A stretch of 64,000 nt of DNA. Source: Akkermansiaceae bacterium (lineage in GTDB: Bacteria > Verrucomicrobiota > Verrucomicrobiia > Verrucomicrobiales > Akkermansiaceae). Of the stretch, positions 15,733 through 31,758 are shown in pieces. How positions within the stretch are numbered: the stretch's first letter is position 1; each line of letters opens with the position of its first letter. The notes below the pieces were generated by a model that worked only from the letters and a program-made list of their open reading frames with translations, ran no database searches and had not been told where the DNA came from. A program made the position numbers and the translations under genes. The stretch covers positions 3,082-67,081 of the forward strand of contig JAYSYA010000274.1 in NCBI GenBank assembly GCA_043716765.1. The letters are read 5' to 3'.

Positions 15733-16117
15733 CTATCAGGTGGCTAAGCCCGGCGCATCAAGCTCGTCTCCGAACTCACTCAAGGCCGCGCTCATCCAGC
15801 CCAATTTCTATCTGATCGAAGAAGCCACCGTCGGCCTCCACCTCGAAGACGTCCAGCGCCTCATCGACGTCCTCCACCACCTCGTCGATGAGGGCCACAC
15901 CGTGGTCGTCATCGAGCACCACATGGCCGTCGCCGCCGAAGCTGACTGGATCCTCGACCTCGGCCCCTAAGCCGGCGACGGCGGCGGCCAGATCATCGCC
16001 CAAGGCCCGCCTGAAAAAATTGTGAAGTCCAAGACCTCCCGCACCGCGCCGTTTCTCAGGAAATCCTTAGGGAATTGGAGTTTCCCGCGATTTCCCAGCT
16101 TCAGCACGCTGAAATAA
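15733..16117 (+). pseudogene. uvrA: 3' fragment of a UvrA-type ABC ATPase with two nonsense codons and a frameshift
   Basis: [15 protein letters not shown] (TAA 15745), frame change, then [38 protein letters not shown]...[33 protein letters not shown] (TAA 15968). Confidence 0.85.
15985..16058 (+). repeat. uvrA 3'-end direct repeat, copy 1
   Basis: 74 bp, 65/74 identical to 17329-17402 by manual alignment. Confidence 0.9.
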
Positions 16118-16125
16118 GAAGGATC

Positions 16126-16177
16126 ATATTTTAAGTTCGGCTTTTAACTTGAAATATAAAAATCCATATTTCAAGTT
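16126..16177. promoter_or_regulatory. Palindromic operator-like site upstream of fic
   Basis: AACTTGAAATAT (16146-16157) N8 ATATTTCAAGTT (16166-16177) is a perfect 12-bp inverted repeat. An extra half-site ATATTTTAAGTT lies at 16126-16137. It ends 6 nt before the start codon. Confidence 0.6.
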
Positions 16178-16183
16178 TCTGCT

Positions 16184-17317
16184 GTGAACATCGAGGCATT
16201 CAAAGCAGGTCATCTGACCAAGCAATTCAAGTATTCCAGTTTTCAGCCGGAGACCATCAATCGGCAGTGGACTTGGCTGGATCCTGAGGTGAATGGACTG
16301 CTTTCCGAAGCAAATCGCTGGCTTGGCGAGCTGAACGCCTTCGGGAAAATCCTTCCTGACGTGGACACTTACATCCGGATGCACGCACTCAAAGAAGCCA
16401 ATGCGTCCAGCCGGATCGAAGGAACCCAGACGCGGATGGAAACCGCTGCCCGACCCATCGAGCAGGTAGAGCCGGAAAAGCGTGACGACTGGCAGGAGGT
16501 TCATCGCTATCTGGAAGCGATGGATCATGCCCTCGAAGGTTTGGGAAAGCTGCCGCTATCGAACCGGCTGCTTTGCCAGACCCACGCCATTCTGCTCGCG
16601 GGTGGACGGGGCGAAACAAAATCCCCCGGCGAGTTCCGCAGGAGCCAAAACTGGATCGGCGGATCCAGCCTCACCGACGCGGTGTTCATCCCTCCCCATC
16701 ACGACGATCTTCCCGCGCTCCTCACGGATCTTGAATCCTTCTGGCACAATGACGACATCCGGGTGCCCCACCTCATCCGGATCGCCATCAGCCACTATCA
16801 ATTCGAAACCATCCACCCGTTCCTTGATGGCAACGGGCGGATTGGCCGGCTGTTGATCACCCTTTATCTGATGGACAAGGAATTGCTGGTGAAGCCCTGC
16901 CTCTATCTATCCGATTTCCTCGAACGCCATCGGGACAGCTACTACGACGCCCTCACCGCCGTCCGCACCCGTAACGATCTGTTACACTGGGTTCGCTTTT
17001 TTCTGAGCGCTGTCCTTGAAACCGCGAAGGGTGCCGTGGCGACTTTCCGAAGCATCATGGAGCTGAAACAAGAGCTGGACGCGAAAATTCTTGGCTTGGG
17101 TCGCAGATCCGAAACCGGGACGCGTTTGCTCCAATACCTTTATATCAATCCTTATGTCGATGTGCCGGAAGTAACCAAGGCTCTCGGTATTTCTCCCGCC
17201 ACCGCCAACGCCTTGCTCGCCGAGTTTCTAAGGCTCGACATTCTAACTGAGCTTACCGGCTACCGGCGCAACCGCATCTTCCATTTCCACGCCTATTTCA
17301 AGCTTTTCCAGTCCTGA
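16184..17317 (+). CDS. Fic family protein (class II-like, C-terminal wHTH)
   Basis: Canonical HPFLDGNGRIGR; N-terminal inhibitory-type SSRIEG motif; PGEFRRSQNWIG; C-terminal HTH-like region ending GYRRNRIF. Confidence 0.92.
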   Translation: MNIEAFKAGHLTKQFKYSSFQPETINRQWTWLDPEVNGLLSEANRWLGELNAFGKILPDVDTYIRMHALKEANASSRIEGTQTRMETAARPIEQVEPEKRDDWQEVHRYLEAMDHALEGLGKLPLSNRLLCQTHAILLAGGRGETKSPGEFRRSQNWIGGSSLTDAVFIPPHHDDLPALLTDLESFWHNDDIRVPHLIRIAISHYQFETIHPFLDGNGRIGRLLITLYLMDKELLVKPCLYLSDFLERHRDSYYDALTAVRTRNDLLHWVRFFLSAVLETAKGAVATFRSIMELKQELDAKILGLGRRSETGTRLLQYLYINPYVDVPEVTKALGISPATANALLAEFLRLDILTELTGYRRNRIFHFHAYFKLFQS

Positions 17318-17328
17318 CCCGAAGACTA

Positions 17329-17402
17329 CGGCCAAATCATCGCCCAAGGCCCACCAGAGAAAATCGCCAGGTCCAAAACCTCCCGCACCGCGCCGTTTCT
17401 CA
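17329..17402 (+). repeat. uvrA 3'-end direct repeat, copy 2
   Basis: Encodes GQIIAQGPPEKIARSKTSRTAPFL, starts 11 nt after the fic stop, and reads on to TGA at 17420-17422. Confidence 0.9.
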
Positions 17403-17583
17403 AGATTGCTTTACGGCTTTGAAAAATGGACCGCGAGATTCTTCTCGCCCGAGGCCAACTGGAAGCGCGAAATTCATTCCGCGCGGAATTCTACGCATGC
17501 CTTTTCCCTCGCCATTCCCAGCCGGCGTTCACAACCTCCCGCAGCCTCCGGATCACCTGAGCCTCGCTAAAGCTTTCCCTGAA

Positions 17584-17775
17584 ATGTCCGTCCACTCGTC
17601 CCTCCAAAGCATCGGGAAACTCGAATCCGATCTCTGGGAAGCCGCGGACAACCTCCGCAGAATCGCTGAATGCAATTTCCTCCAACGCGAAACCCTCGCC
17701 CTCCAAAATCAAAGACTCCGCGCCGCGCGCGACCTGCTGCTGCCGAAGCCGATGAGCGGGGTGATCGAAGTTTGA
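17584..17775 (+). pseudogene. In-frame deletion scar: type I R-M HsdM N-terminus fused to HsdS C-terminus (63 aa)
   Basis: MSVHSSLQSIGKLESDLWEAADNLR (HsdM start motif LW.AAD.LR) joined at about 17659 to ...QNQRLRAARDLLLPKPMSGVIEV* (HsdS end motif RDLLLPKLMSGE). Confidence 0.8.
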
Positions 17776-18912: not shown

Positions 18913-20364
18913 TCAGGAGGAAAGCCAGTAACAGGCGAGCGGAGCGGGGATGGCGAGGATCTTCGCGTTCAGCAACTCGCGTTCGCGGCCTTGCTTGGCC
19001 GAAGGAACATCGAACAGGCCGAAGTCCTCCCAACGCCGGGAAATGATGTAGCCGTGCTCGACCTTTTGGTTTTCGAGAAACAAGCGCAGGCCTTTGAACT
19101 TCCCGAGATCGAGCGGGCTATCCTGGTATTTTACCTCGAAAGGTACCAGGCGGTCGCCGATTTCAGCGATCAAATCCACTTCCAAATCCTTGTTAGCCTT
19201 GTCCCGCCAATAGGTGAAAACCGGTTGGTCCTCGTAGTAGCGGGTGAAGACGTGTTTGAAAAAAGCCGTCTCCACCGCGGCTCCCAGCCGGTCGGGCCGC
19301 TCCAACAGTTTCCGGCCGAGCAACAGCACCGACCCGGGCAGCGCGGCGTCCGCCAGATAGATTTTAGGCTTTCCGCGCAGGATCTCCTTGCCATAGCCGT
19401 GCGGGCGGAGCCGATAGATCAGGTGGGTGGACTCGAATAGATCGAGGAAGTTGTTCACCGAGTTCCGGTTCACGCCGTCCAGCTCGCGGGAAAGCGCGGC
19501 AACGTCGAGGATGCCGCCATCGTGGTAGCACAAATAGAGGAAAATCTTCTCCACCTCCAGCACCCGGCGCACGCCGTAGAGCGCGGTCATGTCGCGCTTC
19601 AACACCTTGTCCACGATGTCCTCGCGCAGCAGCCGCTGGCAGCGCGTTAGATCAGAAACGCTGGCCGGTTCCGGGAATCCGCCGCGCAGGAGGTAGTCAT
19701 GGAAATGCGGAGTCAGCGACTTCGCCTGGGCTGCCGTGCGGGCGAAGTCGCCGGGGCTCCAGTCGAAACACTGTTTCAGTGACTTCACCATCGGCACCGG
19801 GCCGGGATCGATCCCGCGCAGTTTGAGAAACTCCCCGAAGGAAAGCGTAGCCAGCGGCAATGTCTGCCAACGTCCGACCCCGGATTCCGCCTGCGCGGCA
19901 TGAAGCGGGCTGGCCGAGCCCGTCACCACGATCCGCCGCCCGCGCTTGAAATCGACCTGGTGCTTCAGCCACGTCTGCCACTCCGAGACATACTGGATTT
20001 CATCGAGAAACAGCCATTGCGGCTGCCCTGCGGTGGGCGGGAAAAGCTCTTCCCATGCCGCCAAGGTGCGCTCCAGCCCGGCGAGCTTTAGAATGGGATG
20101 GTCGAAAGTGGCGTAGAGGATGTTTCCGGTGGGCGGGCCATTTCCCACCAGATTGCGGATCGCTTGGCGCAGCAAGGTGGTTTTCCCGGTCTGCCGCGCT
20201 CCGCTCAGAACGAGCGCCCGGCGCGATTCCGTGTCGTTGATCCACGCCCGGATCGGCACGCTCGCCGATCGTTCCCAATCCGGCAGGTCGGATACGGGCA
20301 GCCCGGTCCACCAAGGATTGAACTCCTGGAGGACGGCGAAAAGTTCGGCTTTGGGCAGTTCCAT
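18913..20364 (-). CDS. AAA_14 ATPase with DUF4143 / PD-(D/E)XK-like C-terminus
   Basis: GARQTGKTT, LFLDEIQY, VTGSAS, RGGFPE, PKIYLADAAL, GAAVETAFF, EVDL...FEVKY. Confidence 0.9.
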   Translation of the reverse strand: MELPKAELFAVLQEFNPWWTGLPVSDLPDWERSASVPIRAWINDTESRRALVLSGARQTGKTTLLRQAIRNLVGNGPPTGNILYATFDHPILKLAGLERTLAAWEELFPPTAGQPQWLFLDEIQYVSEWQTWLKHQVDFKRGRRIVVTGSASPLHAAQAESGVGRWQTLPLATLSFGEFLKLRGIDPGPVPMVKSLKQCFDWSPGDFARTAAQAKSLTPHFHDYLLRGGFPEPASVSDLTRCQRLLREDIVDKVLKRDMTALYGVRRVLEVEKIFLYLCYHDGGILDVAALSRELDGVNRNSVNNFLDLFESTHLIYRLRPHGYGKEILRGKPKIYLADAALPGSVLLLGRKLLERPDRLGAAVETAFFKHVFTRYYEDQPVFTYWRDKANKDLEVDLIAEIGDRLVPFEVKYQDSPLDLGKFKGLRLFLENQKVEHGYIISRRWEDFGLFDVPSAKQGRERELLNAKILAIPAPLACYWLSS

Positions 20365-20422
20365 GCTTAATTCGCCTGTTTATGCTCTCTATAAAGAGCT
20401 TAATCCAGCCGATTATGCTTTT

Positions 20423-21042
20423 TTACGAAAAAACCCGTCTCAACGCGGCGGCCGGGAGGGACTTGATGGCTTTCAACTCGGCGCGCGCCGCGGTGAGGAT
20501 TTCCGTGGCGGCGGTGAGGCGGGCGTCGAGTTGCATAGTGAGATTGTCCTGCTGCTTGCGGCTCGGAAGGCAGACGTGAAACTCCCGTGCAGCGGGCATG
20601 TAAATGGTTTGATGGATCGCGCCGGACGACTTGGTTTCCATGTAGGCCTTCGATGCGCGCAGGGCCTGCATGAGGAAACGAGGTGCCAGATCGCTGCCGC
20701 AGATCCAGTTGAAGAAATGCTGACGGTGGCCATCGGTCGGCCTGCCCATGATTGTTGTGAAGCCGACTTGAACATCACGGCCGAAGACGACGGTGTCTTT
20801 GGGGAGAATGCGGGCGGACGAATTCTTAATTCCCAGAGGATTGGTGTAGCCTTTGGTCTCCATCGCCACCTTTGCCGTCGATGGCGCGGATGTCGGGGAA
20901 GGAAACCCAGGGAATTTCGCCGCCCCAACCCGGTTGGCGGCGGCTGGGGGTGTGACCGGATTTGAGACCGGCCTGGGTGGCAAGCCGCTGCCACGACCCA
21001 CCCGCCGAGCCGCAATCAATCCATCGTGTTTTTCCCGCTCAT
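20423..21042 (-). pseudogene. hsdS: Type I R-M specificity subunit remnant (single TRD, frameshift near 20870)
   Basis: KSGHTPSRRQPGWGGEIPWVSFPDIRAIDGK, +1 frameshift, then VAMETKGYTNPLGIKNSSARILPKDTV...LPSRKQQ...KSLPAAALRRVFS*. ATG 21042 overlaps the TGA of the duplicated hsdR end; most of the first TRD is missing. Confidence 0.78.
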
Positions 21043-21048
21043 GCGGCT

Positions 21049-21077
21049 AACAACCTCCGTTTGGTTTCCATGACGAG
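21049..21077 (-). repeat. hsdR 3'-end direct repeat, copy A
   Basis: AACAACCTCCGTTTGGTTTCCATGACGAG (29 bp) is identical to 21947-21975; weaker similarity extends about 25 bp further. The minus strand reads LVMETKRRL. Confidence 0.92.
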
Positions 21078-21116
21078 CCAGGCGGGATTGGCGGAGGCTT
21101 TGGCCGGATGGTTTTC

Positions 21117-21551
21117 TCATACCGCTTTAAGGAGTTGGAGGTCGGGGAGTGAATAGGATTTGAAGCCTGCATCGAAGGTAACGAAGGCAAGGTCCGCGGT
21201 TTTCGCCCAAGCGGCGAGATAGGCGTCCATCCAAAGCTTGGGCGAGGCCGTGCGCCCGGCGATGTGTTGCCGCCATGCCCCGTCGAGCCCGGCGGGTTCC
21301 ATGGGCAGGTAGGCGGTGCGGATGTCACCGACGAGTTTTTCCCAAACGTGCCAGGCATCGTCGGGGGTGTGTGTGTCGTCCCCCATGACGCTGCGGTTGA
21401 TGAGCAGGCGGAGGACGGTTTGCTGGAGCGGCCGGCACCAGCAGCAGGTTGCGGCAGGGCGCTCGCTCCACCAGTCAATGGCTGCGGCGTGATGTTGGTG
21501 GCTCTCGACGAGGATGGGCAGCCAGACGTTGGCGTCAACGAGGGCGGGCAT
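21117..21551 (-). CDS. vapC: VapC-type PIN domain toxin (TIGR00028-like)
   Basis: MPALVDANVWL, SHQHHAAA..WW, LWMDAYLAA, FVTFDAGF acidic PIN residues. Confidence 0.88.
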   Translation of the reverse strand: MPALVDANVWLPILVESHQHHAAAIDWWSERPAATCCWCRPLQQTVLRLLINRSVMGDDTHTPDDAWHVWEKLVGDIRTAYLPMEPAGLDGAWRQHIAGRTASPKLWMDAYLAAWAKTADLAFVTFDAGFKSYSLPDLQLLKAV

Positions 21552-21882
21552 GGGCGGCGAGTTCTTCTTGATCCATTTCCTCAAGCGCTTGCTCGACGGC
21601 TGCGGCGGGGATTTGCGGTGCTCCTTTTCTGGCTGGGATCAGCGGACCGCTGAGGCGGTAGCCCTGTGGGTAAGCCATACGCAGGCTCTCGGCGTCCCGA
21701 TGGCGGCTCAGTTGGGCCGGGGTAACGACCGGGATTTCGGCAGTGGTCCGCGAGCTACCACCCTCATCAAGCCATTTCTGAAAAAGATCCGCAGCCACCT
21801 CGCGGATGCGCCGCCCTTCTTCGGCCGTGCGGGCCTTGACCCGCCGGTAAAGGTCGTCCGGAATGTCGATGGTTGCCTTCAT
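21535..21882 (-). CDS. Ribbon-helix-helix antitoxin (VapB-like)
   Basis: MKATIDIPDDLYRRVKARTAEEG RHH start. Lies immediately upstream of the PIN gene and overlaps it. Confidence 0.82.
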   Translation of the reverse strand: MKATIDIPDDLYRRVKARTAEEGRRIREVAADLFQKWLDEGGSSRTTAEIPVVTPAQLSRHRDAESLRMAYPQGYRLSGPLIPARKGAPQIPAAAVEQALEEMDQEELAAHARPR

Positions 21883-21936
21883 GGATGGCAAGTTAGCTGG
21901 TTTCCTGTATCGCGTCAAGGTAGGCGGTGGGTGTCA

Positions 21937-22368
21937 TCAGGCGACGAACAACCTCCGTTTGGTTTCCATGACGAGTTGGGCGGGATGGCCGTGAGCCTGG
22001 AGGGCGGCGAGGCCGCCGGCGCGTTTGACGGCGGGGACGTCGAAGAGATCGGGGAATTCCAGGCCCGACGAGGGCGAGCAGCACGCCTTCGGTGGTGTTT
22101 CCGAAACCGGCGAGCCAGGCGGCATTAGCGGCGGCGAAGGCTTCCACGCGGTGGAGGCGGGCGCGGCGAGCTTTACCTTGTAGTCGGCCACTGAGACGGG
22201 CATCGCCTTGCCATCGACCTCGGCGACGAACGAGATGCCGCCATCGAGGATTTCCACGGTGACGCCACGGGCCTCGACTTTGATCGGGACGGGATTTCCA
22301 CCGCCTTCTTCCTCACTATCAGACGCGGGCGTTTTTCTCCGGGTGGCCATCCTTGACCGCGGCGGCAT
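21937..22368 (-). pseudogene. hsdR: Type I R-M restriction subunit C-terminal remnant with internal deletions and frameshifts
   Basis: IKVEARGV...VDGKAMPVSVADYKVKLAA / RVEAFAAANAAWLAGF / GLEFPDLFDVPAVKRAGGLAALQAHGHPAQLVMETKRRLFVA*, spread over two frames. Matches recalled EcoEI-type HsdR C-termini. Confidence 0.65.
21947..21975 (-). repeat. hsdR 3'-end direct repeat, copy B
   Basis: Exact 29-bp match to 21049-21077. Confidence 0.92.
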
Positions 22369-22414: not shown

Positions 22415-23794
22415 TTAGAAGTGAATCGCGTGGCCTTCCGCCGCGAGGGTCGCCTCGTGGATGACTTCCGACATCGTCGGATGGGCGTGGATGGTGGCGT
22501 GGATTTCGGCACTGGTTAGCTCTTGGTCGAGGGCGAGTCCCATTTCGGCGATGAGCTCGGTGGCGTTCTCGCCGATGATGTGCGCGCCTAGCAGTTCGCC
22601 GTGTTTCTTGCCGTAAAGGAGCTTGGCGAATCCGTCCGGCTCACCGGAGGCGATGGCCTTGCCGATGGCGACGAACGGGATTTTCCCGACGGTGTATTCG
22701 ATGCCTTCTGCCTTGAGCGCGCGCTCGGTTTTCCCAACAGAAGCGACTTGCGGGTGGCAATAGGTGCAGCCGGGGAAATTGGTGACTTTGCGCGGCTTGT
22801 GGCCTTCGAGATACAAGCCTTCGACACACTGCACGGCTTCGAACGATGCGACGTGGGCGAGCCATGGCGGGCCGTTGATGTCGCCGGCGGCGTAAACTCC
22901 GGGGATGGAGGTTTCGTAGCGATCGCCGCATTTGATGTAGCCGCGGTCGAGCTCGGGCTCCAAGCCGCCGGGAAGCACGGGCTGGATGCCGATGGCGACC
23001 AGGCAGACTTCGGCGCTGAGCGTGCCGTTTTCCTTGGGACCTTCCACCGTGAGTTCGACGTGGGTGCCCTTGTCCACCGCGGCGGTGATCTTGGTGTTCG
23101 TGAGGCAGCGGATGCCTTGCTTGATGAGGGATTTTTCCAAGGCGTCGCCCACTTCGTCGTCCTCGACGGGGAGGATCCGCGGGGCCATTTCGACGAGCGT
23201 CACCTTGGTGCCGAAGGCATTGTAAATGTAGGCGAATTCGACGCCGATCGCGCCCGCGCCGATGATCAGCATCTCCTTCGGCTGCTGCGGGAGGTTCATC
23301 GCCTCCTTGGAGCCGATGACGGATTTGCCGTTGAACGGCAGGCCGGGAAGGGGGCGGCTTTTGCAACCGGTGGCGACGAGGATGTCCTTGGTTTCAAGGA
23401 GCTGGCGCGAGCCGTCGTTGCCGACCACGCCGACCTTGCCGGTGCCTTCGACCGAGCCGAAGCCGCGGACGTAGGCGATGCCGTTCTTTTTAAGCAGATA
23501 CTCAATGCCGCCGGCGAGGCGGTCGGAAACCTTGCGCGAGCGACCGACCACGGCGGACCAGTCGTAGGAAAGCCCTTCGATTTTCAAACCAAACTCAGCG
23601 GCCTTGTGGGTGAGCATGTGATAGACCTCGGCATTTTTGAGCAAGGCCTTGGTGGGAATGCAGCCCCAGTTGAGACAGGTGCCGCCAGCGCGGTCCGCTT
23701 CGACGCAGGCGACTTTTTTTCCAAGTTGGGCGGCGCGGATGGCGGCGACGTAGCCGGCAGGGCCGCCACCGATGACAATGAGATCGTAGGCCAT
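22415..23794 (-). CDS. lpdA: Dihydrolipoyl dehydrogenase
   Basis: GGGPAGY, GGTCLNWGCIP redox disulfide, GAGAIG, HAHPTMSE. Confidence 0.96.
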   Translation of the reverse strand: MAYDLIVIGGGPAGYVAAIRAAQLGKKVACVEADRAGGTCLNWGCIPTKALLKNAEVYHMLTHKAAEFGLKIEGLSYDWSAVVGRSRKVSDRLAGGIEYLLKKNGIAYVRGFGSVEGTGKVGVVGNDGSRQLLETKDILVATGCKSRPLPGLPFNGKSVIGSKEAMNLPQQPKEMLIIGAGAIGVEFAYIYNAFGTKVTLVEMAPRILPVEDDEVGDALEKSLIKQGIRCLTNTKITAAVDKGTHVELTVEGPKENGTLSAEVCLVAIGIQPVLPGGLEPELDRGYIKCGDRYETSIPGVYAAGDINGPPWLAHVASFEAVQCVEGLYLEGHKPRKVTNFPGCTYCHPQVASVGKTERALKAEGIEYTVGKIPFVAIGKAIASGEPDGFAKLLYGKKHGELLGAHIIGENATELIAEMGLALDQELTSAEIHATIHAHPTMSEVIHEATLAAEGHAIHF

Positions 23795-23932: not shown

Positions 23933-26900
23933 ATGAAAATCCTCCACAAGAACCTGCTCATTCTCGCTTCCGCCGGCTCTGGAAAGACCTTCCAGCTGGC
24001 GAACCGGGTGATCGGGCTGGTGGCGATGGGCGTGGCGCCGGAAAAGATCGTGGCGCTGACATTTACCCGCAAGGCCGCCGGAGAATTCGCGGACTCGGTG
24101 CTGACCAAGCTGGCGGCGGCCGCCAGCGACGAGCCAAAAGCCGCCGCACTACGCAAGGATTTGGCACTGCCGGACGCGGACTTCGCGGAGTCGCTGGAGC
24201 GGGTGGTCCGCGCCTTGCCGCGGCTCACGCTGGGGACGATGGATGGCTTTTTCGCCAAGGTCGTGCGCGGTTTTCAATATGAGCTCGGAATGACCGGCGG
24301 AAAATTTGAGCTGTTGGAAGGACCGCGGGCGGCAGCGGCGGCGGATGAAATTCTCGCCACGATGCTCGGCGAAACGTTGGAAGACGGAACCGGGGACGAT
24401 TTCCTGCACGCGTTCCGCCGGGCGACCATCGGCAAGGAAGACCAGAAAGTATTAGATGGTTTGCGCGACTTCGTGCAGAGCTGGCAGAGCCGCTTCCGCG
24501 CCGCGCACGGCCTGGAGTGGGGACCCGCAAGTCTCGCAGGTGTCGAGCTGGAGGATTGGGAAAAACACAAACACGACCTCGCCGCCAAGATCTCGCGCGG
24601 GCTCGACGGCATTGATTACACCGAAAAGCGCCAGCGTGAGGCCTTGGAGAAGGTGATAGAAAACCTTGTGAATCACACCATTGGCAGCGGCAGTCTCGGC
24701 GGGTCTGTTAGTCTGCTCGCTAACATTCTGGAGGCGGCTGGCAACGGGAACGGGTCGATGTCGGTGAAGTTTTACAAGGAGTTCATCATCGGCGGTCCGG
24801 CGGGCGAGGCACTCCGCAGCATGGTGAAGCTCGCGGCCCATTGCGAAATGGCGGCGGCACTCCACCGGACCCGCGCCGTGCGCGAGGTGGTCTCGGGCTA
24901 TGACGCCCGCTGCGAAAAACAACTTCGCCGCCGCGGCCTGCTCGGCTTTGACGACGTCAAAGTCCTGATGGGCGAGTGGGTCAAAGGCGAGGACGCGAGG
25001 TTGCGGCGCGAGGCCGTGGATTTCCGTCTCGACGCTCGCTACGAGCATTGGCTGCTGGATGAGTTTCAAGATACCAGTCGGTCGGACTGGATGGGACTGC
25101 TCCCACTCATCGACGAAGCGGCGGGCGAAGGCGAGGGCACGATGTTCATCGTGGGTGATCGCAAACAGGCGATTTACGCGTGGCGCGGCGGCGAGGTCGG
25201 ATTGTTTGGCGAGGTGATCGACCGCTATCAAGGCGGTTTGGAAATCGAGCCGATGGCGGAGTCCTGGCGTTCGTGCCCCGAGGTTTTAGCCTTGGTGAAC
25301 CAGGTCTGCGGGGATGCGACGACGCTGCGGGAGCTGTTCGGCGACGCCGCGGCCAAGTGGGAATGGCAGAAGCATGCTTCCGCAGAGCCATTGGCCTGTC
25401 CGACCCAATGCGGAGAGGCACGGGTGGAAGTGGTGGATGGGAAATGGGAGGAACGCTTGGAACGGCTGGGTGCATTACTCGACGAGCTCGGCGTCGGCAA
25501 GCGACCGATGACTTGCGGCGTGCTGGTGCGCAGTAACTCGATGGTGCGGGAGGTGGCGGACCATCTGCGGGCGAGGGGGCTGGATGTCATCGAGGAAGGC
25601 CGCCGCGAGCCGGCGAAGGACAATCCCGTAGGTATCGCGCTCGGGCATTTGCTCAAGTGGTTGGCAAATCCGGCGGACGCCTTCGCCCGCGAAGTTGTGG
25701 AAATGTCACCGCTGGCAGTCACCCTGAGGACCAGGTTTGGCGAACATTGGCAACAGGTCTGGGAGGGTCTGCTAGGACTCGCCTCGGAATCAGGTTTCGC
25801 CGGGATGATCGGAAAAGTGCTGGAAGACAACTGGACGGATTGGTCGGATTTCGGCCGCCGCCGCGCCGGAGATATTATGTCGGCGCTCGCCGGACTCGAC
25901 GCGCAGGGCGGAGCGACTCCGCAACAAGCTGCGGAATGGATCGGGCGACTCGAAGTGTCGCAAAGTCCGGGGATCGCCGCCGTGCAAGTGATGACTATTC
26001 ACAAGGCAAAGGGCCTCGGCTTCGACGTGGTGGTGCTGCCGGAGGTTCCTAACGACGGGCTGCCGTCATCGCAATATTTCGACGTGGCCGAGGCAGGCGG
26101 CTGGATCACCCAAACCCCGCCGAAGTGGGCGCGGGAGCTGATTCCGGAAATGCGCGCGGCGGAAGCGGAGTGGGCTGCGAGCCAGCGCTACGAGGCGTTC
26201 TGCATGCTTTACGTGGCTCTAACCCGCTCGAAACGCGGGCTTTATATCCTGCTGGAGCCCCCTGCCAAATCCCAACTGCCCGACAAACCATCGCTGGCTA
26301 ACTGGCTGGCGAGATCAATCTCCGCAACGGGCGAAGTCGGGGTGGCCTATCAGTCGGGGTCGCCGGGCTGGGTGGAGACCATTTCTCCATCAAGAATCCC
26401 TGAGGATATCGTTGCGGCGCCCCCGCTTGCCGCCGGTGTGATCCGCCGCGAACGAACGACGCCGAGTGGCGCGAAGAAAAAAGCGGCCGCTGCGGTGACA
26501 CATTCCGCGAGCGGAATGAAGTTCGGCAGCGAGGTCCACATCGCCTTCGAACAAGTTGGCTGGGTGGACGAAACGACCCCCGATCTACCCGCGAGCGACG
26601 CCGGGCTACTGGTGGCTGATTTGCTGCAAATCCCGGATTTGAGGAAACTCTTCGAGCGCGACGGACAAGCGGTGGAGCTGTTTCGCGAACAAGCGGTGGA
26701 CGCGGTGCTCGATGGCAAATGGCTCAGCGGGGTGATCGACCGGCTTCACCTCCACCGCGACGCTGCCGGCGTGGTGGACCGCGTGCGGGTGATTGATTTC
26801 AAAACCGATGGGCTGGATAAGATCACGGAACTGGTCGAGAGGTATTCCGGCCAGATGCAAGCCTATCGAGAAGTGATGGAACGGGCCTACCCCGCCGCGC

Positions 26901-26953
26901 GAGTCGAGTGCGTTCTTCTTTCCACACGCTCCCGCGAACACATTTCTATCTGA
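23933..26953 (+). CDS. addA: AddA/RecB-like UvrD helicase-nuclease
   Basis: ASAGSGKT, LTFTRKAAGE, LLDEFQDT, VGDRKQAIY, MTIHKAKGLGF, LYVALTRSK; C-terminal SGVIDRL...IDFKTD nuclease. Confidence 0.88.
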   Translation: MKILHKNLLILASAGSGKTFQLANRVIGLVAMGVAPEKIVALTFTRKAAGEFADSVLTKLAAAASDEPKAAALRKDLALPDADFAESLERVVRALPRLTLGTMDGFFAKVVRGFQYELGMTGGKFELLEGPRAAAAADEILATMLGETLEDGTGDDFLHAFRRATIGKEDQKVLDGLRDFVQSWQSRFRAAHGLEWGPASLAGVELEDWEKHKHDLAAKISRGLDGIDYTEKRQREALEKVIENLVNHTIGSGSLGGSVSLLANILEAAGNGNGSMSVKFYKEFIIGGPAGEALRSMVKLAAHCEMAAALHRTRAVREVVSGYDARCEKQLRRRGLLGFDDVKVLMGEWVKGEDARLRREAVDFRLDARYEHWLLDEFQDTSRSDWMGLLPLIDEAAGEGEGTMFIVGDRKQAIYAWRGGEVGLFGEVIDRYQGGLEIEPMAESWRSCPEVLALVNQVCGDATTLRELFGDAAAKWEWQKHASAEPLACPTQCGEARVEVVDGKWEERLERLGALLDELGVGKRPMTCGVLVRSNSMVREVADHLRARGLDVIEEGRREPAKDNPVGIALGHLLKWLANPADAFAREVVEMSPLAVTLRTRFGEHWQQVWEGLLGLASESGFAGMIGKVLEDNWTDWSDFGRRRAGDIMSALAGLDAQGGATPQQAAEWIGRLEVSQSPGIAAVQVMTIHKAKGLGFDVVVLPEVPNDGLPSSQYFDVAEAGGWITQTPPKWARELIPEMRAAEAEWAASQRYEAFCMLYVALTRSKRGLYILLEPPAKSQLPDKPSLANWLARSISATGEVGVAYQSGSPGWVETISPSRIPEDIVAAPPLAAGVIRRERTTPSGAKKKAAAAVTHSASGMKFGSEVHIAFEQVGWVDETTPDLPASDAGLLVADLLQIPDLRKLFERDGQAVELFREQAVDAVLDGKWLSGVIDRLHLHRDAAGVVDRVRVIDFKTDGLDKITELVERYSGQMQAYREVMERAYPAARVECVLLSTRSREHISI

Positions 26954-27054
26954 TTGATGGAGCGCTGCGCGACCCTGCGGATTTTTGAGAAATTCCGCGC
27001 TATTCTCCGCATGGGATTGCCATTGCCGAGCTTTGCCCTCTTAGTGATATCGCT

Positions 27055-28896
27055 ATGAGTCAATCAATCGAAACCTCTCACCTACCCTTGCAAAAATGGG
27101 TCGCTGCAATGACCGCCCTCTGCACCCCCGAAACGGTCGAGTGGTGCGACGGTTCGCAAGCAGAGTGGGACCGTCTGACGACGCTGATGGTGGACAAGGG
27201 GACCTTCACCCGCCTCAATCCTGCCAAGCGCCCTAACTCGTTCCTCGCCCGCTCGACACCGTCCGACGTCGCCCGCGTGGAAGACCGCACCTATATCTGT
27301 TCGAAACGCCGCGACGAAGCTGGCCCCACCAATCACTGGGCGGACCCCGCCGAGATGCGCACAAAGTTGAACGAAAAATTCAAAAGCGCCATGAAAGGGC
27401 GGACGATGTATGTCATCCCCTTCTGCATGGGTCCGCCCGACTCGCCGCTCGCCAAGATCGGCGTGGAAATTTCCGATAGTCCTTACGTGGTCGTCAACAT
27501 GCGGATCATGTGCCACATGGGTGCCCACGTCCTCAAGCGCCTCGAAGACGAAGCTAACGGCACGCTCGCCATTAAGCGCGACGGACACGGCCAGTTCATT
27601 CCCTGCCTCCACTCCGTCGGCGCGCCGCTTGAGCCCGGCCAAGCCGACTCCACCTGGCCCTGCTGCGATGACAAATACATCGTCCATTTTCCCGAGACCC
27701 GCGAGATCATGTCCTTCGGCTCGGGCTATGGCGGCAATGCCCTGCTAGGAAAAAAATGTCTTGCCCTGCGCATCGCTTCCAACATCGCCCGCGAGCACCA
27801 ATGGATGGCCGAGCACATGCTCATCGTCGGCATCCACGCGCCGAACGGCACCAAGAGCTACCTGACCGCCGCCTTCCCCTCCGCCTGCGGCAAAACCAAT
27901 CTTGCCATGCTCATCCCGCCCAAAGCCTATCTTGATGCGGGATGGAAGACCTCCATCGTCGGCGACGACATCGCCTGGCTGTGGCCTCATGCGGACGGCA
28001 AGCTCCACGCGATCAATCCGGAAACCGGCTTCTTCGGCGTGGCTCCCGGCACCGCTTACGAGACCAATCCCATCGCCATGGAGTCGATGAAGGAAAACAC
28101 CATTTTCACCAACGTCGCGCTAACGGATGACGGCGACGTCTGGTGGGAAGGCATGTCCCCGACCAAACCCGCGCACCTCATCGATTGGACCGGCAAGGAC
28201 TGGACGCCCGACTGCGGCCGCGCCGCCGCCCATGCCAACGCCCGCTTCACCGCGCCCGCCGTGCAGTGCCCGACCATCGACCCGGAGTGGCAAAATCCGG
28301 ACGGCGTGCCCATCGACGGCATCGTCTTCGGCGGCCGCCGCCCCACGACCATGCCGCTTGTCTATCAGGCATTCAACTGGAGCCACGGCGTTTACATCGG
28401 AGCCACCATGGGTTCGGAAATGACCGCCGCCGCCGCCGGCACCATCGGCAAGGTCCGCCGCGACCCGATGGCCATGCTGCCGTTCTGCGGCTATAACATG
28501 GGCGCGTATTTCGGCCATTGGCTGGAAATGCGCCGCTACCTGACCAGCCTGCCGCGCTTCTTCCACGTCAACTGGTTCCGCAAGGACGAAGACGGAAAAT
28601 TCCTGTGGCCCGGCTTCGGCGAGAACATGCGCGTCCTCGAATGGATCGTAAAACGCTGCCACGGTGCCGCCGCCGGCTACGAAACACAGATCGGTTGGAC
28701 TCCGGCGTTCGAGGATTTCAACATCGAAGGTCTCGAGGGCTTCAACCGCGAGAGCTACGACAAAGTCATGGCCTTCAACCGCGCGGAATGGAAGACGGAG
28801 CTCGTCAGCCAGGGAGAACTCTTCATCGACCTCTATGACGACCTGCCGAAGGAACTCATCTTCCAACGCGAGCTGCTAGCAGCGCGTCTGTCCTGA
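27055..28896 (+). CDS. pckG: Phosphoenolpyruvate carboxykinase (GTP)
   Basis: [57 protein letters not shown]. Confidence 0.97.
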
Positions 28897-28900
28897 GATG

Positions 28901-28976
28901 GAGAATGTGTCCCGGCGGTCTCAGCCGGGGGCGGTGGCTTTGAATCCGGCTGAGACAGCCGGAACACTTTGAAGCG
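28901..28976. repeat. 76-bp REP-like palindromic element, copy 1
   Basis: GAGAATGTGTCCCGGCGGTCTCAGCCGG...CCGGCTGAGACAGCCGGAACACTTTGAAGCG; internal stem GTCTCAGCCGG/CCGGCTGAGAC; 74/76 identical to 31683-31758. Confidence 0.93.
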
Positions 28977-28993: not shown

Positions 28994-29798
28994 TCAATAC
29001 GTCGGCATCGCACCGCAGCGGAAAACCGCATCCAGCACGTTCTTATCCGTCCGCGGATCATAACGAACAGTCATCGCGGTCCGGCGCTTCTCGTCGTGCC
29101 AATCCTTCCAATAAATCATCAGTGCCTTGCCATATTCCTTGTGCTCCACCACCGCTTTGATCTGCGAATCCAGCGACCCAATGGCGTGCTTCGTCTCGAT
29201 GAGTAATATCCCGTCCCGTGCCACCGTCCGGTTTTTCACACCGACGATGAAGTCCGGGAAAAACCGCCCGCCATCAGGGCGGACAATGGCCACCGAGTGC
29301 TTCTTCTTCACGGGATTCCGGTGCCACCACAGAACCGTTCCCTCCGGATCATGATCCAACAGCTTGGCGAACTCGACTTCCCACGGATTCAAATCCGCCG
29401 GGAAAACGCCATAAACATTCTTAAATGATAGATTTAGCTTCACCGGCGAATCCACAAATCCCGGCAACGGCTCCGTTTTCCGCGTGAATGAAAATCGCGC
29501 CGCGCAGGATTTCTCCACCTCGCGCAGCAAGCCGGGATGGCGGACAAGGATCAAGGCCAGCGCCACTTCCAGCCGCTCCTCATCCTCCGCCACCTCGGTC
29601 ATGCCATGATTGCGGAACTCCACCGCCAGCCGCTTTAGCAAGTGATCCTGCAAATCCTTCGGGCTTAAATATTGCTGCCGCAGGAGAAGCCATGCTGGCC
29701 TGTGCTTCCTGCAATTTGGTGAAAACCGTGCGGAGGAGCTCGTTCGTGGAATCCGTCCCGATGCCATGGCGGCGGAGAGAAAGGCGTTTCCGCCCCAT
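28994..29798 (-). pseudogene. Type III restriction (Res) subunit C-terminal remnant
   Basis: NVYGVFPADLNPWEVEFAKLLD...WWHRNP...FFPDFIV...LIETK PD-(D/E)XK nuclease end. Frameshifted near 29700; helicase domains absent. Confidence 0.7.
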
Positions 29799-29861
29799 GA
29801 GCGATCCAGCCGTTTAGTGATGAGGTGGGCGGCATTCAGGACGAGGATCTCGATGTGCCAC

Positions 29862-29984
29862 TTACCGGCGACTGTTATCCTGCTCCCACACCAGCCCGAA
29901 CCTCTTCCGGTCCCGCGCCTCCAGCAGCTCAACCAGCTGTTTCTTCGTCAGATCGCGAAATTTTGTCGGGTCATTGGCGGGCAC
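29862..29984 (-). pseudogene. Type III methyltransferase (Mod) N-terminal stub
   Basis: VPANDPTKFRDLTKKQLVELLEARDRKRFGLVWEQDNSRR*. The L..LLEARDR..FGLVWE pattern resembles Mod N-termini. Confidence 0.55.
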
Positions 29985-30141
29985 AGGCAAATTAATTGCC
30001 CAGCCTGTGGGGTGAGAAAAGAAATTCGGGCATTGGATTTCTCGTCAACGCGCGAGGTTTTGAGCAAAATGTCTGTCACCGACCTGTGATGGGAATGAGA
30101 AGTTCTCTTCCCATGAACTGGTTGTCTACGCCCTCGAGTGA

Positions 30142-30372
30142 CTAATGGGTCTTGCAGATCAGGAACTTCTCGAAATCACCCGTTGTCGGAGCACTGAACT
30201 CTTGGCGCCGGATGAAACCCCTCGATTCCAAGTCATTAATGCGCGTCCGAAGACGTGCAACCCGTGCGACTTGCTCGCTGGACTGAGCCTCAACGGTTTT
30301 GCGCAAGGCACCCGCAACCTTTTCGACGATCTCAGAAGTAACGGCGGTTGTGGAGGAAGAATTGGCGGTCAT
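30142..30372 (-). CDS. Small hypothetical protein (76 aa) downstream of the SDH protease
   Basis: MTANSSSTT...VARLRTRINDLESRGFIRRQEF..., overlapping the protease stop by 41 nt and followed by a hairpin at about 30089-30114. Confidence 0.5.
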   Translation of the reverse strand: MTANSSSTTAVTSEIVEKVAGALRKTVEAQSSEQVARVARLRTRINDLESRGFIRRQEFSAPTTGDFEKFLICKTH

Positions 30373-31204
30373 GACGGTTGATGTAGTCGGTGATGAACTC
30401 GGAATACGCAAGAATTTTAGTCCGCAGTTCAAGATCTGTCGAATAGTCTTCGATCTTGAGTTTGAGGAGGTTTTTAATGGTTCCCACCCCAATCTTTCTT
30501 CCGTGGGAATGCCAGATCTTGTTGTCCGAGAGCCTCATGGCAATTTCCTCGGCCCGCTGCTGCTTTTCGGATTCTGTGACCGGCTGCCCTATTTTGGTAG
30601 GATTCGAATCGTGGATTTTCCAATCCTTGAACTTGTATTCAACCAGCCATTTTTTGAGCAGTGTGATGGTGAGGTTTTTTGCCTGCTCGAACCTGCTGAG
30701 CATGGCCAAGTCCAGATTCTGAAGAATTACCAACTCGGCATCAGTCAGAGTTCCCAAGGCAGATTTCTCGACCATCTTCTCGACTTGATCCAAATATCCA
30801 AGAGCCGGAACCCAATCCTTGCCATTATGAACCTGGGGATCAATCGGCCCCAACGAAGACGTGTAGTCCATATAAATCGCATCACCTGAAAGAGCAAAAA
30901 TGGTGCCTGCGGACATTGCTTCGTCAGGAATGATGAACAAGACTTCAGAGTAGTGATACCGAATAATTTCAACCAGCTTTTCGACAGTCTCGGCGCTTCC
31001 TCCGGGGGTGTTCAGAACGATTGCAACCTTATCTCTTGTGGGCTTTTCCTCTCGTAAATCCTCGATGAACTCTCGAAATAATTTTTCAATCGACGGGAAG
31101 ATAGGGCCATGAAACAGAACCACATCAGCATTCAAATGCTGTTCAAGGGCCATGATCCGCTCCTTCGCGGTTTCTCTAATATGCGCATCAAATACTCTCA
31201 TCAT
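30332..31204 (-). CDS. SDH-family ClpP/crotonase-fold serine protease
   Basis: LNTPGG, AMSAGT (nucleophile Ser), SSLGPIDPQ, WHSHGR motifs. Low-GC codon usage. Confidence 0.88.
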   Translation of the reverse strand: MMRVFDAHIRETAKERIMALEQHLNADVVLFHGPIFPSIEKLFREFIEDLREEKPTRDKVAIVLNTPGGSAETVEKLVEIIRYHYSEVLFIIPDEAMSAGTIFALSGDAIYMDYTSSLGPIDPQVHNGKDWVPALGYLDQVEKMVEKSALGTLTDAELVILQNLDLAMLSRFEQAKNLTITLLKKWLVEYKFKDWKIHDSNPTKIGQPVTESEKQQRAEEIAMRLSDNKIWHSHGRKIGVGTIKNLLKLKIEDYSTDLELRTKILAYSEFITDYINRHDRQFFLHNRRYF

Positions 31205-31682
31205 TGTGGCTGGGTGGGTCGGTGATTGGATTGCGAGAAGATGACTTTTTTTATACTCCGAATAAGGTGCTTAAGGGTTACTCAGGGCGTAGGGTTTGTA
31301 GCAGTGGTGGTGGTGGCAAGTAGTAACGGAATAATGGATTTCTCCAACCGTTACTGGAAACTGGCAGAAGCTGTTTCTTTAGGAAGCTTCAAATGTGAAA
31401 AGCTAATATTTCCCACAAATCGCTCGTATTGAGCCGACTAGGATATTGGGACGGCTGCAATTGGATGAGCCTCGACATGACCTCGCACGGACCTCGGGGG
31501 CGATCTGTATCAACCTTGGCGTCGGCTCTTGCGGACCTCGGAGCGGTCAGTACAAAGCTGCGCACCGGCTGATACGAGCCTTGGGTTGGGCTGGGTTGAA
31601 ACTGGACATTGATCGCGATGACCTTTTTCGCATTCCGCATCAACCTCGGGACGCGCGGCGAGGGCCTTGGCTTGGGCTGAAA

Positions 31683-31758
31683 GAGAATGTGTCCCGGCGG
31701 TCTCAGCCGGGGGCGTTGGCTTTGGATCCGGCTGAGACAGCCGGAACACTTTGAAGCG
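31683..31758. repeat. 76-bp REP-like palindromic element, copy 2
   Basis: Direct repeat of 28901-28976 with 2 mismatches; ends 2 nt before the stop of the convergent PBP gene. Confidence 0.93.

Follow-up and report, generated by a model that had tools for sequence, protein, structure and literature searches.

Passenger genes between duplicated gene ends in an Akkermansiaceae defence island, and recurrence of the arrangement at the uvrA end across the genus

The window analysed here is the whole stretch of 64,000 nucleotides taken from contig JAYSYA010000274.1 of an Akkermansiaceae metagenome-assembled genome (MAG). Where uvrA and lpdA ancestrally converged in this clade, at ~9.4 to 22.4 kb, there is now a defence island in the course of erosion; a conserved core block and a cassette between two REP-like hairpins follow. 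In the list below and throughout, G, C and L denote genomes, contigs and loci, respectively, and D1, D4 and D2 are the three direct repeats.

9437..15571, minus strand: Hhe-type DUF4011 helicase-nuclease (anti-phage), the left part of the defence island
15575..15697, minus strand: 3' fragment of a GlcD-like FAD-linked oxidase (translation; Pfam FAD-oxidase_C, E=2.6e-5)
15727..16079, plus strand: proximal uvrA copy, a 3' pseudogene stub including D1 copy 1 (nhmmer, tblastn)
16080..16183, plus strand: fic promoter region with the palindrome AACTTGAAATAT-N8-ATATTTCAAGTT at 16146-16177, read from the sequence
16184..17317, plus strand: intact gene of a SoFic-type Fic protein (Fic_N, Fic and C-terminal wHTH in Pfam)
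17320..17422, plus strand: distal uvrA copy, the displaced native tail, with D1 copy 2 (nhmmer E=3.5e-20)
17427..17775, plus strand: collapsed remnant of a type I hsdM-hsdS pair (alignment to G080, where the pair follows uvrA)
18913..20452, minus strand: AAA_14/DUF4143 (PDC-S01) ATPase cassette, ORF 18913-20364 (Pfam, PADLOC PDC-S01)
20423..21019, minus strand: hsdS remnant with one target-recognition domain (PADLOC Specificity_I, E=2.3e-28)
21039..21098, minus strand: distal hsdR tail with stop codon (D4 copy), 20 nt before the hsdS remnant
21117..21918, minus strand: vapBC cassette, with vapC at 21117-21584 and vapB at 21535-21882 (ATG; listed from TTG at 21918)
21937..22368, minus strand: proximal hsdR 3' stub of 143 codons with the other D4 copy, abutting the lpdA stop
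22415..28896, mixed strands: conserved core block of lpdA (minus), AddA-like helicase-nuclease (plus) and GTP-PEPCK (plus) (Pfam)
28901..28976, plus strand: REP-like hairpin copy 1, 4 nt past the PEPCK stop
28994..29932, minus strand: remaining 3' part of a res gene, type III restriction (similarity to a G014 ResIII protein)
30332..31204, minus strand: intact SDH-type ClpP-fold serine protease (Pfam SDH_protease; NCBIfam match under cut-off)
31683..31758, plus strand: second copy of the REP-like hairpin, separated by 2 nt from the stop codon of the PBP gene (minus strand, 31761-33476)

The large helicase-nuclease matches DUF4011, AAA_11/12 and MTES_1575 in Pfam, Hhe/PDC-S37 in PADLOC and Hhe_antiphage in NCBIfam. 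Synteny of the core block with G001, G077 and G067 starts at 22415 and ends at 28929-28932. The gene order at the junction is uvrA, vapCB, lpdA, addA in G067 and uvrA, hsdM, hsdS and, after an interval, hsdR in G080 (HsdM, HsdS and HsdR assigned by Pfam); positions 17329-17658 of the window align to the uvrA tail and hsdM start of G080, and positions 17688-17775 to its hsdS end.

A preliminary description had placed three passengers between duplicated host sequences: fic between two diverged uvrA 3' ends, vapBC between two hsdR 3' ends and the SDH cassette between two REP hairpins. Upon remeasurement, the three repeats are confirmed to be real as described, and the gene identities hold with corrections. 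The uvrA repeat D1 (15976-16077 and 17320-17421, period 1344) comprises 102 nt with 79% identity, and the hsdR repeat D4 (21039-21093 and 21937-21991, period 898) comprises 55 nt with 85% identity and an exact core of 29 nt. The REP-like repeat D2 (28901-28976 and 31683-31758, period 2782) comprises 76 nt with 97% identity and brackets the type III res remnant together with the SDH-protease cassette. An exact 25-29-mer repeating inside 19.5 kb is unexpected (chance ~1e-9), and the exact repeat cores, 25 and 29 nt long, come close to the length reported to be the minimal segment for RecA (Shen & Huang 1986). Because the copies of each repeat have diverged, they do not represent an assembly duplication. 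The ends of uvrA and hsdR are each present twice as claimed, but the copies in the window are dead pseudogene stubs, not the ends of intact genes.

The proximal uvrA stub, ~350 nt in length, is 91% identical at the nucleotide level to the real uvrA of the genome on contig C65 (nhmmer E=9e-59 against the uvrA-tail profile); it has lost 29 nt by deletion, is interrupted by an in-frame TAA (15968-15970) and has diverged in its last few codons. The fic gene is recognized by PADLOC as SoFic (E=1.7e-114), with an NCBIfam SoFic match under the cut-off, and palindromes like that in its promoter region stand upstream of or beside fic homologues in other phyla. The distal uvrA tail has kept the original stop codon and runs on into the native downstream flank; in G067, G068 and G080, the native junction at uvrA is collinear with this tail and flank. 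The two copies differ by 6 synonymous and 4 non-synonymous codon changes, a pattern that fits two functional alleles, of which the donor allele would have arrived with the passenger. The intact uvrA is split over contigs C181 and C65 of this MAG of 336 contigs, and its downstream end enters a multi-copy repeat.

In the second case, the last 60 aa of the 143-codon stub match the C-termini of EcoEI-type (EcoEI_R_C-bearing) HsdR proteins, which are directly followed by hsdS. The same order is found in G139 and G136, and the distal hsdR tail with the hsdS remnant is the native hsdR-hsdS junction. The vapBC cassette has its own promoter within 21883-21921, and VapC contains a PIN domain (Pfam) and matches TIGR00028 over the cut-off. 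In G067, a block 90% identical to 21122-21921 at the nucleotide level lies between uvrA and lpdA; the ATPase block begins ~88 nt before the start of the ORF, ends with the stop codon and has a counterpart of 92.8% nucleotide identity downstream of uvrA in G068, where the flanks differ. Since the divergence of both cassettes from G067 and G068 equals that of the core genes (90% vs 90%), the present layout owes as much to vertical inheritance and hotspot erosion as to fresh entry. The vapBC and ATPase blocks may be old residents with neat borders that result from deletion stopping at functional limits rather than from cassette mobility. The expectation that duplicated hsdR ends would bracket variable cargo in relatives was not borne out: a search for recurrence of the hsdR tail found no relatives with duplicated hsdR ends, and none of five VapC homologue loci has flanking repeats.

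The third repeat turned out to be a member of a dispersed family of palindromic REP-like hairpins, with at least 17 loci in the MAG, instead of a duplicated gene end; in the nearest relatives, a hairpin already follows the stop codons of both the PEPCK and the PBP gene. Copy 2 is orthologous to the hairpin after the PBP gene in G077 and G001. Copy 1 bears the PBP-type loop and flank and not the PEPCK-type hairpin of the relatives. The GC content of the SDH protease DNA is 47-51%, against ~60% in the flanks, and across 249 aa the res remnant has 34% identity to the C-terminus of a ResIII protein of 822 aa that is encoded next to a methylase in G014.

The arrangement at the uvrA end recurs in the genus. 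When the ~12 kb that follow uvrA were searched with a profile in ~45 genomes, five proved to have at least one spare uvrA tail behind a full uvrA, and, as anticipated for relatives, the cargo bracketed by the duplicated ends varies between genomes. In four of the five, the cargo is a 638-aa protein (G022), a 206-aa protein (G021), a 171-aa protein (G023) or a 9-kb segment encoding DUF3800, a type ISP methylase, a YhcG nuclease and a PLD-SNF2 helicase (G018); in G008, the tails are in tandem without cargo. Orphan uvrA tails occur in G004 and on contig C229 of G021. A filled and an empty site can be compared directly: in G070, uvrA is followed by its neighbour, and in G023 by the cargo, an 83-nt tail and the same neighbour. 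In G023, the proximal end is foreign and the distal tail is like the allele of G070 and G068, and the pair shows that the distal tail is the native allele.

Duplicated ends also surround fic genes in many phyla. When repeats of at least 50 nt were counted, duplicated ends of neighbouring genes were found hugging the gene at 8 of 68 SoFic loci, compared to 2 of 112 control ORFs (Fisher p=0.007). The duplicated sequence is the groEL 3' end at L195; 5' ends are duplicated at L147 and L160 (hsdR) and at L170 (a DUF1801 gene), and the host gene keeps one intact copy in each of these four. At L146, the flanking copies have different, internally compensated terminator stems between identical flanks, and none of the fic repeat pairs is above 92% identity. 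The copies at the window uvrA, at L146 and in the fic pairs look like alleles rather than fresh duplicates.

We consider recombinase-free, homology-anchored insertion-duplication followed by deletional erosion to be the best reading of these loci, with a probability somewhat better than even. Such a process would be akin to insertion with long target duplication (ILTD), as published for restriction-modification (R-M) genes, but with cargo other than R-M. The comparisons made here establish how the cassettes are built, that they recur, that recombinases are absent and that the distal tails are native; from these we infer the recombination route itself. Small self-contained expression units, each consisting of a promoter and one or more ORFs up to the stop codon (SoFic and vapBC in the window, other cargo in relatives), would enter without a recombinase of their own. 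Related donor DNA would bring a shared gene end, that of uvrA or of an hsdR, with a different passenger and recombine through this end, the far end being joined illegitimately inside the recipient copy; alternatively, a circular fragment would be integrated by a single crossover. The gene would then end in donor sequence, followed by the passenger and by the recipient's own tail, pushed downstream as a stub. Repeated rounds, with deletions stopping at the limits of functional units, would leave intact passengers piled between gene stubs, and the uvrA body would later have been lost from the window locus, with the intact gene on C181 and C65. The SDH/type III cassette would stem from a like event in a REP-like hairpin serving as the 3' flank of the PBP gene, to which a REP x REP rearrangement was possibly added, bringing PEPCK alongside. 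The earlier proposal of integrase-free mini-cassettes entering at conserved gene ends is partly supported: for the uvrA end by its recurrence, its varied cargo and the native distal tail of the G023/G070 pair; for hsdR, no recurrence was found in relatives, and the REP pair is not a gene end.

It is unlikely, in our judgement, that the cassettes are decayed or satellite site-specific islands, with a replacement 3' end of uvrA (and hsdR) in attP, an integrase lost or acting in trans and cargo lying between attL/attR remnants. Integrase-borne islands bring along a substitute for the 3' end of the gene they target (tRNA, icd and others), so that the gene remains whole and its own end survives as a stub beyond the island; this classic footprint is shared by the cassettes, and the arrays of uvrA tails resemble the partial-tRNA arrays of island hotspots. 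The earlier observation that no recombinase or transposase gene lies in or beside the cassettes holds, however: there is no tyrosine integrase (PF00589) on the contig of the window, no serine recombinase (PF00239) in its genome and no Pfam match naming a transposase in the flagged region. Neither does PF00589 match any contig with extra uvrA tails, including that of the 9-kb G018 element, and PF00239 is absent from the eight genomes searched except for a single match in G004 on another contig. Several tyrosine recombinase genes are present elsewhere in every genome searched and could act in trans, as proposed for the integrase-less H47 island of E. coli, which is excised and integrated by host functions (PMC3191183). 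Like H47, the cassettes are small, have no recombinase of their own, are flanked by extensive imperfect direct repeats and would rely on host functions; H47 is distinguished by recombination at four defined segments and without RecA. Further differences from integrase-borne islands are that the cassettes comprise as little as one gene and have many targets, and that the repeats vary from 83 to ~590 nt with no common sequence at the cassette ends, which counts against a fixed att site. Moreover, the fic family lies between unrelated gene ends (groEL, hsdR, uvrA) in different phyla and would have needed a new attP each time.

Rather improbable, too, is in-situ long target duplication, the original ILTD reading, under which foreign DNA, joined at a staggered break or through template switching in replication, would have led to copying of the target stretch in place, giving copies identical at birth that diverged later. 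ILTD of restriction-modification gene complexes (Nobusato et al. 2000, cited in Furuta, Abe & Kobayashi 2010, PMC2853133) is described in the latter paper as yielding small inserts (<20 kb) without a mobility gene, by an unknown mechanism, between direct, long and variable repeats (30 to ~420 bp) that are single-copy at the empty site and often overlap the last bases of a gene. The cassettes of the window and the genus are likewise small and free of mobility genes, with long variable direct repeats at gene ends. In favour of such an origin, the uvrA copies in G022 (96% over at least 185 nt) and in G008 (95-96%) are closest to each other, as would be expected of target duplication in situ more than of donor and recipient alleles, and more than one process may operate; the REP pair of the window is 97% identical with a unique loop in common, and in the published R-M cases the two copies resemble each other more than they do the empty site (PMC2853133, Table 3). 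By contrast, the window uvrA copies differ mostly at synonymous sites, the distal copy of G023 is nearer to the empty-site allele than the proximal copy is, L146 has compensated alternative hairpins, and no near-identical young pairs exist among the fic or the window uvrA and hsdR repeats. The repeats found here, diverged (79-89%) and resembling donor and recipient alleles, differ from those of ILTD, and one housekeeping gene end has been reused across the genus, leaving tail arrays. The cargo (SoFic, VapBC, SDH protease, unknown proteins) is also non-R-M, and therefore cleavage by the cargo cannot be the cause.

Erosion alone, under which the repeats would be what is left of once larger copies, tandem or paralogous (a second uvrA, a full R-M operon), with cassettes that never moved and REP hairpins juxtaposed by rearrangement, is highly improbable. 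It agrees with the core-like divergence of vapBC and the ATPase, with the many further stubs of the region (GlcD', hsdM-S', hsdS', res') and with the pre-existence of both REP sites in relatives, but fails to explain the short tail directly after each passenger and before the native downstream flank, the filled and empty sites, the enrichment around fic genes and the PBP-type character of REP copy 1. An assembly or binning artefact can be dismissed almost entirely, despite the fragmentation of the MAG and the split uvrA, since an assembler would neither create nor collapse repeats so diverged (79-97%) and the same architecture is seen elsewhere, among others in G008, a genome assembled into two contigs, and on a contig of 143 kb in G022.

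Insertion-duplication as preferred here has parallels in several systems. Loci of rhs, cdiA and T6SS effectors carry arrays of "orphans" formed by C-terminal displacement, in which an incoming gene end and its passenger displace the resident end and orphans accumulate downstream; the end exchanged there is a toxin domain, whereas here it serves as anchor only, and the passenger has no relationship to uvrA or hsdR. Homology-facilitated illegitimate recombination and Campbell-type insertion-duplication have been described in natural transformation (de Vries & Wackernagel 2002; Prudhomme et al. 2002; cited in PMC2884548), and according to the citing paper, one homologous anchor suffices to capture foreign DNA, and a circular donor that crosses over once leaves a copy of the anchor on either side of the insert, with the host recombinase alone. 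Those are laboratory observations; for the present organism, competence, RecA dependence and the form of the donor are hypothetical. Integrase-free defence and TA islets that are exchanged through homologous recombination at flanking core genes are exemplified by the core defence hotspots of P. aeruginosa (PMC10250203), by TA islets (PMC13617665) and by the minimal mobile elements of Neisseria (PMC3787668). These share with the present loci a variable hotspot between conserved genes, the lack of mobility genes and tiny islets containing only TA or defence genes; however, two-sided allelic replacement leaves no duplicated gene end, so the stubs found here indicate one-sided or single-crossover events.

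The idea is not new in kind, as ILTD of R-M genes (PMC2853133) and homology-facilitated capture have already been published. What the loci described here represent is a little-known mode of insertion, in which defence and TA genes come to lie between diverged spare gene ends, and which recurs genus-wide at the uvrA end and around Fic genes in many phyla.

Three direct repeats in the window, reported in the preliminary description with intact passenger genes between their copies, were all recovered with the periods claimed, and each pair encloses one passenger unit (fic, vapB/vapC or an SDH-type protease block):

15976-16077 and 17320-17421: uvrA-end repeat, 102 nt, 79% identity, period 1344
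16184-17317: intact Fic gene, cargo of the uvrA-end pair
21039-21093 and 21937-21991: hsdR-end repeat, 55 nt, 85% identity, period 898, with an exact 29-nt core
21117-21918, minus strand: vapB/vapC, cargo of the hsdR-end pair
28901-28976 and 31683-31758: REP-like hairpin repeat, 76 nt, 97% identity, period 2782
28994-29932: ORF, 3' remnant of a type III res gene, in a low-GC block (47-51%)
30332-31204: SDH-type ClpP-fold protease in the same low-GC block, cargo of the REP pair

The accompanying claim that no recombinase or transposase gene lies nearby holds as well: tyrosine integrases (PF00589) had no match on C195, the contig of the window, serine recombinases (PF00239) had none anywhere in the genome, and no Pfam match of the ORFs within the flagged region named a transposase. 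The footprints that bear on RecA-dependent recombination through one homologous anchor are allele-like pairs of copies and exact repeat cores of 25-29 nt.

In this genome, a fragmented MAG, the working uvrA encodes a double UvrA of ~1900 codons, as is usual in the genus, where the open frame of this length contains duplicated UvrA modules. It is split between contigs C181 and C65, which overlap by 98 nt; ~100 nt past the uvrA stop, C65 enters a sequence that recurs at the ends of C124, C204 and C246, and with this multi-copy repeat at its end the gene could not be joined to C195. Next to the Fic gene, the window contains the following fragments:

15575-15697: 3' fragment of a GlcD-like gene
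15727-16079: uvrA stub (copy 1), the last ~350 nt, 91% identical to the working uvrA
16146-16177: palindrome associated with fic
17320-17422: uvrA stub (copy 2), the last ~100 nt, with the authentic ending ...KIALRL* and its stop codon

Copy 1 is interrupted by an in-frame TAA, has lost a stretch of 29 nt and has diverged in its final codons. Six synonymous and four non-synonymous codon differences separate the two copies, a pattern characteristic of a pair of alleles, each of which evolved within a working gene. In the complete genomes of the genus uvrA is not found near PEPCK, and on the basis of this distance the fragment was at one point taken for an orphan import, a reading overturned by the gene layouts of three related genomes, G067, G068 and G080. 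These showed that, for the sub-clade, the window locus represents an ancestral uvrA junction. In all three, the native junction of uvrA is matched by copy 2 together with its flank; in G067 the gene order is uvrA, vapCB, lpdA, addA, and in G080 uvrA is directly followed by an intact hsdM-hsdS-(two passengers)-hsdR. Window positions 17329-17775 are a collapsed remnant of the uvrA tail, hsdM start and hsdS end of that G080 layout. From these layouts, copy 2 and all sequence to the right of it constitute the native downstream side of uvrA in the sub-clade. The fic cassette, together with a foreign-ended uvrA copy, is placed before the displaced native tail, and the locus has since lost the uvrA body. 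An exact empty site for the three cassettes of the window was not found among the relatives compared.

The surrounding region is a decaying defence island, which comprises an Hhe helicase-nuclease, the SoFic-type Fic, a PDC-S01 (AAA_14/DUF4143) ATPase, a fragment of a type I S-subunit and VapBC, along with the GlcD-like and type III res remnants listed above; synteny with the closest genomes is limited to lpdA, addA and PEPCK (22415-28932). Two units of the island recur in relatives. The vapBC block of G067 is 90% identical to window positions 21122-21921, a value equal to that of the neighboring core genes, and the common block extends from the stop codon of vapC to ~40 nt upstream of the vapB start. 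The ATPase block (18913-20452) sits downstream of uvrA in G068 (positions 1921-3460 of the extracted locus L060; 92.8%), with both flanks unrelated, and spans exactly the interval from the stop codon to ~88 nt upstream of the start. The borders of the two blocks are alike in that each runs from promoter to stop codon. Such units would be explained by deletions that halt at functional limits, leaving intact only what lies between promoter and stop codon. A suspected repeat around the ATPase gene of G068 was discarded, the flanking matches being adjacent and not identical parts of the GlcD-like fragment. Remnants of an ECF sigma/anti-sigma pair overlap the Hhe gene at its 3' end (8404-9502), and 46 nt from there recur at a contig end downstream of uvrA in G068 (L060, 4081-4126); this shared stretch suggests a different gene order in that genome.

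At the hsdR-end pair, an ORF of 143 codons (21937-22368, minus strand) matches over its last 60 residues the C-termini of EcoEI-type HsdR proteins from two genomes of the same order, in both of which hsdR runs straight into hsdS. The distal hsdR copy (21039-21098) stops 20 nt short of an hsdS remnant, and thus the native hsdR-hsdS junction is preserved. The VapC between the copies belongs to TIGR00028 (score 82.6 against a cut-off of 73.6) and has a PIN domain; the overlapping vapB gave no family match. Duplicated hsdR ends did not recur in relatives: a search of 150 of them returned only two distant HsdR C-termini, and among 400 genomes of the phylum VapC homologues occupy six loci, none of the five examined having flanking repeats. 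The hsdR case stands alone. For the third pair, the identification as REP hairpins stood, the element being palindromic, REP-like and present at no fewer than 17 loci of the MAG; it is not a gene end. With REP/BIME-type palindromes this family shares a short imperfect palindrome, many dispersed copies and a position just after stop codons. Its short form is a 34-nt perfect hairpin, AATGTGTCCCGGCTG-TCTC-AGCCGGGACACATT, its long form (~70 nt) consists of two halves split by a variable loop, and orthologous sites alternate between the two (window 28901-28976 versus the related genomes G077 and G001). In G077 and G001, PEPCK and the PBP gene lie at separate loci, each with a REP-like hairpin directly past its stop codon, and both sites are single-copy. 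Both window copies have one unique loop in common, and in its variant bases and flank copy 1 follows the PBP-type copy and not the hairpin of the PEPCK type found in relatives. Duplication or recombination therefore appears to have produced copy 1 from copy 2, and in the REP case an insertion may have been combined with a REP x REP rearrangement.

In four relatives, duplicated uvrA ends bracket variable cargo. A nucleotide profile built from the terminal 200 nt of uvrA in 29 genomes of the genus, applied to ~12 kb downstream of uvrA in ~45 genomes, yielded the following spare tails:

G022: second uvrA tail beyond a cargo gene for a 638-aa protein
G021: second uvrA tail beyond a cargo gene for a 206-aa protein
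G023: second uvrA tail beyond a cargo gene for a 171-aa protein
G018, contig C192 (L089, reverse strand), 108-9067: 9-kb block between two uvrA tails
G008, contig C2 (L082), 1-430: two tandem extra uvrA tails after the real stop, without cargo
G004: orphan uvrA tail
G021, contig C229 (L053, reverse strand), 5821-7884: orphan uvrA tail between a vWA-domain gene and a VapC-like PIN gene

The uvrA repeats of relatives range from 83 to ~590 nt, with a different length in every case, and searches with PF00589 and PF00239 detected no recombinase gene on any contig with extra or orphan tails. A filled/empty pair is provided by G023 and G070, in which one and the same convergent neighbor follows the 83-nt distal tail in the former and the uvrA stop in the latter; the distal tail of G023 resembles the G070/G068 allele and the end of its own working uvrA differs. 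The G018 block, which lacks an integrase, encodes a DUF3800 protein, a type ISP-like methylase with a specificity domain, a YhcG/DUF1016 nuclease and a PLD-SNF2 helicase and is a candidate composite defence system; R-M-like cargo was seen between uvrA tails in this genome only. The extra tails of G008 (~75 nt each, ~159 nt apart) are 95-96% identical, and the orphan tail on C229 of G021, distant from the real uvrA of that genome, retains 67% amino acid identity with one TAG.

The Fic protein was assigned to SoFic by PADLOC (E=1.7e-114) and contains the Pfam domains Fic_N and Fic and the motif HPFLDGNGRIGR (SoFic family motif HPFxDGNGR); its score against the NCBIfam equivalog, 167, is below the cut-off of 550. 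Its nearest relatives are merely 52-66% identical and scattered across many phyla, with none near uvrA, and no homologue from 60 relatives or from 80 loci of the species collection is flanked by uvrA ends. Direct repeats of 59-171 nt (72-92% identity) nonetheless hug fic in 8 of 68 testable loci, compared with 2 of 112 control ORFs of similar size from the same loci, both from one locus (Fisher p=0.007, with a control of modest size). These repeats are ends of adjacent host genes, one intact copy of which is retained in each case:

L195 (Nitrospirae MAG JAJXTW010000294.1), 640-2480: groEL 3' end, fic cassette, degenerate 95-nt groEL tail, vapB-like antitoxin gene
Marinobacter and a gammaproteobacterial MAG: hsdR 5' ends repeated, fic between hsdS and hsdR
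DUF1801 locus: repeat of the promoter and 5' end of a DUF1801 gene

The array of stub and cassette in L195 is the arrangement of the window at a different housekeeping gene. The borders of the fic cassettes have no common sequence except for an operator-like palindrome in the fic promoter, TGAAA(T)ATA-N8-TAT(A)TTTCA. It accompanies SoFic-type genes across phyla, either in the promoter or just downstream (in L195 and in the fic loci L170, L164 and L147, besides the window), and may be a binding site for the C-terminal winged helix of Fic.

Taken together, the evidence fits a recombinase-free capture through a shared gene end. Homologous recombination could act on one side, the second joint forming illegitimately within the tail of the recipient's gene, or a circular fragment could enter by a single crossover (insertion-duplication). 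Such capture would account for the foreign proximal end and native distal stub, for the allele-like divergence and variable length of the repeats and for the absence of conserved cassette ends; the different genes that follow uvrA without any stub in many genomes would be explained by two-sided replacement or by capture with deletion. The pattern also matches homology-facilitated illegitimate recombination and insertion-duplication as observed in the laboratory (references in PMC2884548). Duplication of the target in situ also fits some of the data: in G022 and G008 the uvrA tail copies are nearest to one another, for which reason a single mechanism is not claimed, and sliding identity between the G021 and G022 tails did not separate donor from native. 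At one fic locus (L146), on the other hand, the flanking copies share their outer sequence and have terminator stems that differ but are internally compensated, a state that drift acting on a single duplicated copy would hardly produce. An integrase working in trans, for which the H47 island is a precedent (PMC3191183), may also have acted, although these loci differ from site-specific integrative islands in the absence of an integrase (PF00589) from C195 and the extra-tail contigs and of a fixed att core, the repeats varying in length and the fic junctions having no sequence in common.

The pattern observed matches the insertion with long target duplication (ILTD) published for gene complexes of R-M systems in, among others, Helicobacter, Haemophilus and Neisseria (PMC2853133). 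The window repeats (102, 55 and 76 nt) exceed the 30 bp of ILTD, the inserts are shorter than 20 kb with no mobility gene in or adjoining them (Pfam; PF00589, PF00239), and an empty site with a single repeat copy and conserved flanks is supplied by G023/G070 for the genus, though not for the window's own three cassettes. The published cargo consists of R-M systems, whereas that of the window is SoFic, VapBC and the SDH protease; long target duplication is therefore not confined to R-M systems, and DNA cleavage by the cargo cannot be required. A 2026 study described TA-only islets, with a palindrome duplicated on either side of a TA operon (PMC13617665). To these descriptions the present data add cargo other than R-M systems, a single housekeeping gene end that is reused across a genus, a filled/empty pair whose distal tail is native and an enrichment measured around one Fic family.

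These observations bear on how defence and TA genes move without a nearby integrase or transposase, and they offer a testable footprint in four parts: an anchor gene end, a displaced native tail, genome-specific cargo and the recurrence of this signature at one Fic family across many phyla. Should the homology-anchored route hold, every conserved gene end would be a potential landing pad, and past insertions in genomes and MAGs could be located, and put in order, from their tail stubs. More speculatively, and in our judgement rather doubtfully, single-gene defence and TA units (SoFic, PDC-S01 ATPases, VapBC and others) might form a general class of recombinase-free cassettes, whose only integration module would be a conserved host-gene terminus carried from the previous host; relatives would install them by their own recombination machinery, displacing their own tail and regenerating a repeat-flanked unit able to loop out and move again. 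If this is true, successive invasions would have left a datable fossil record in the arrays of tail stubs at genes such as uvrA.
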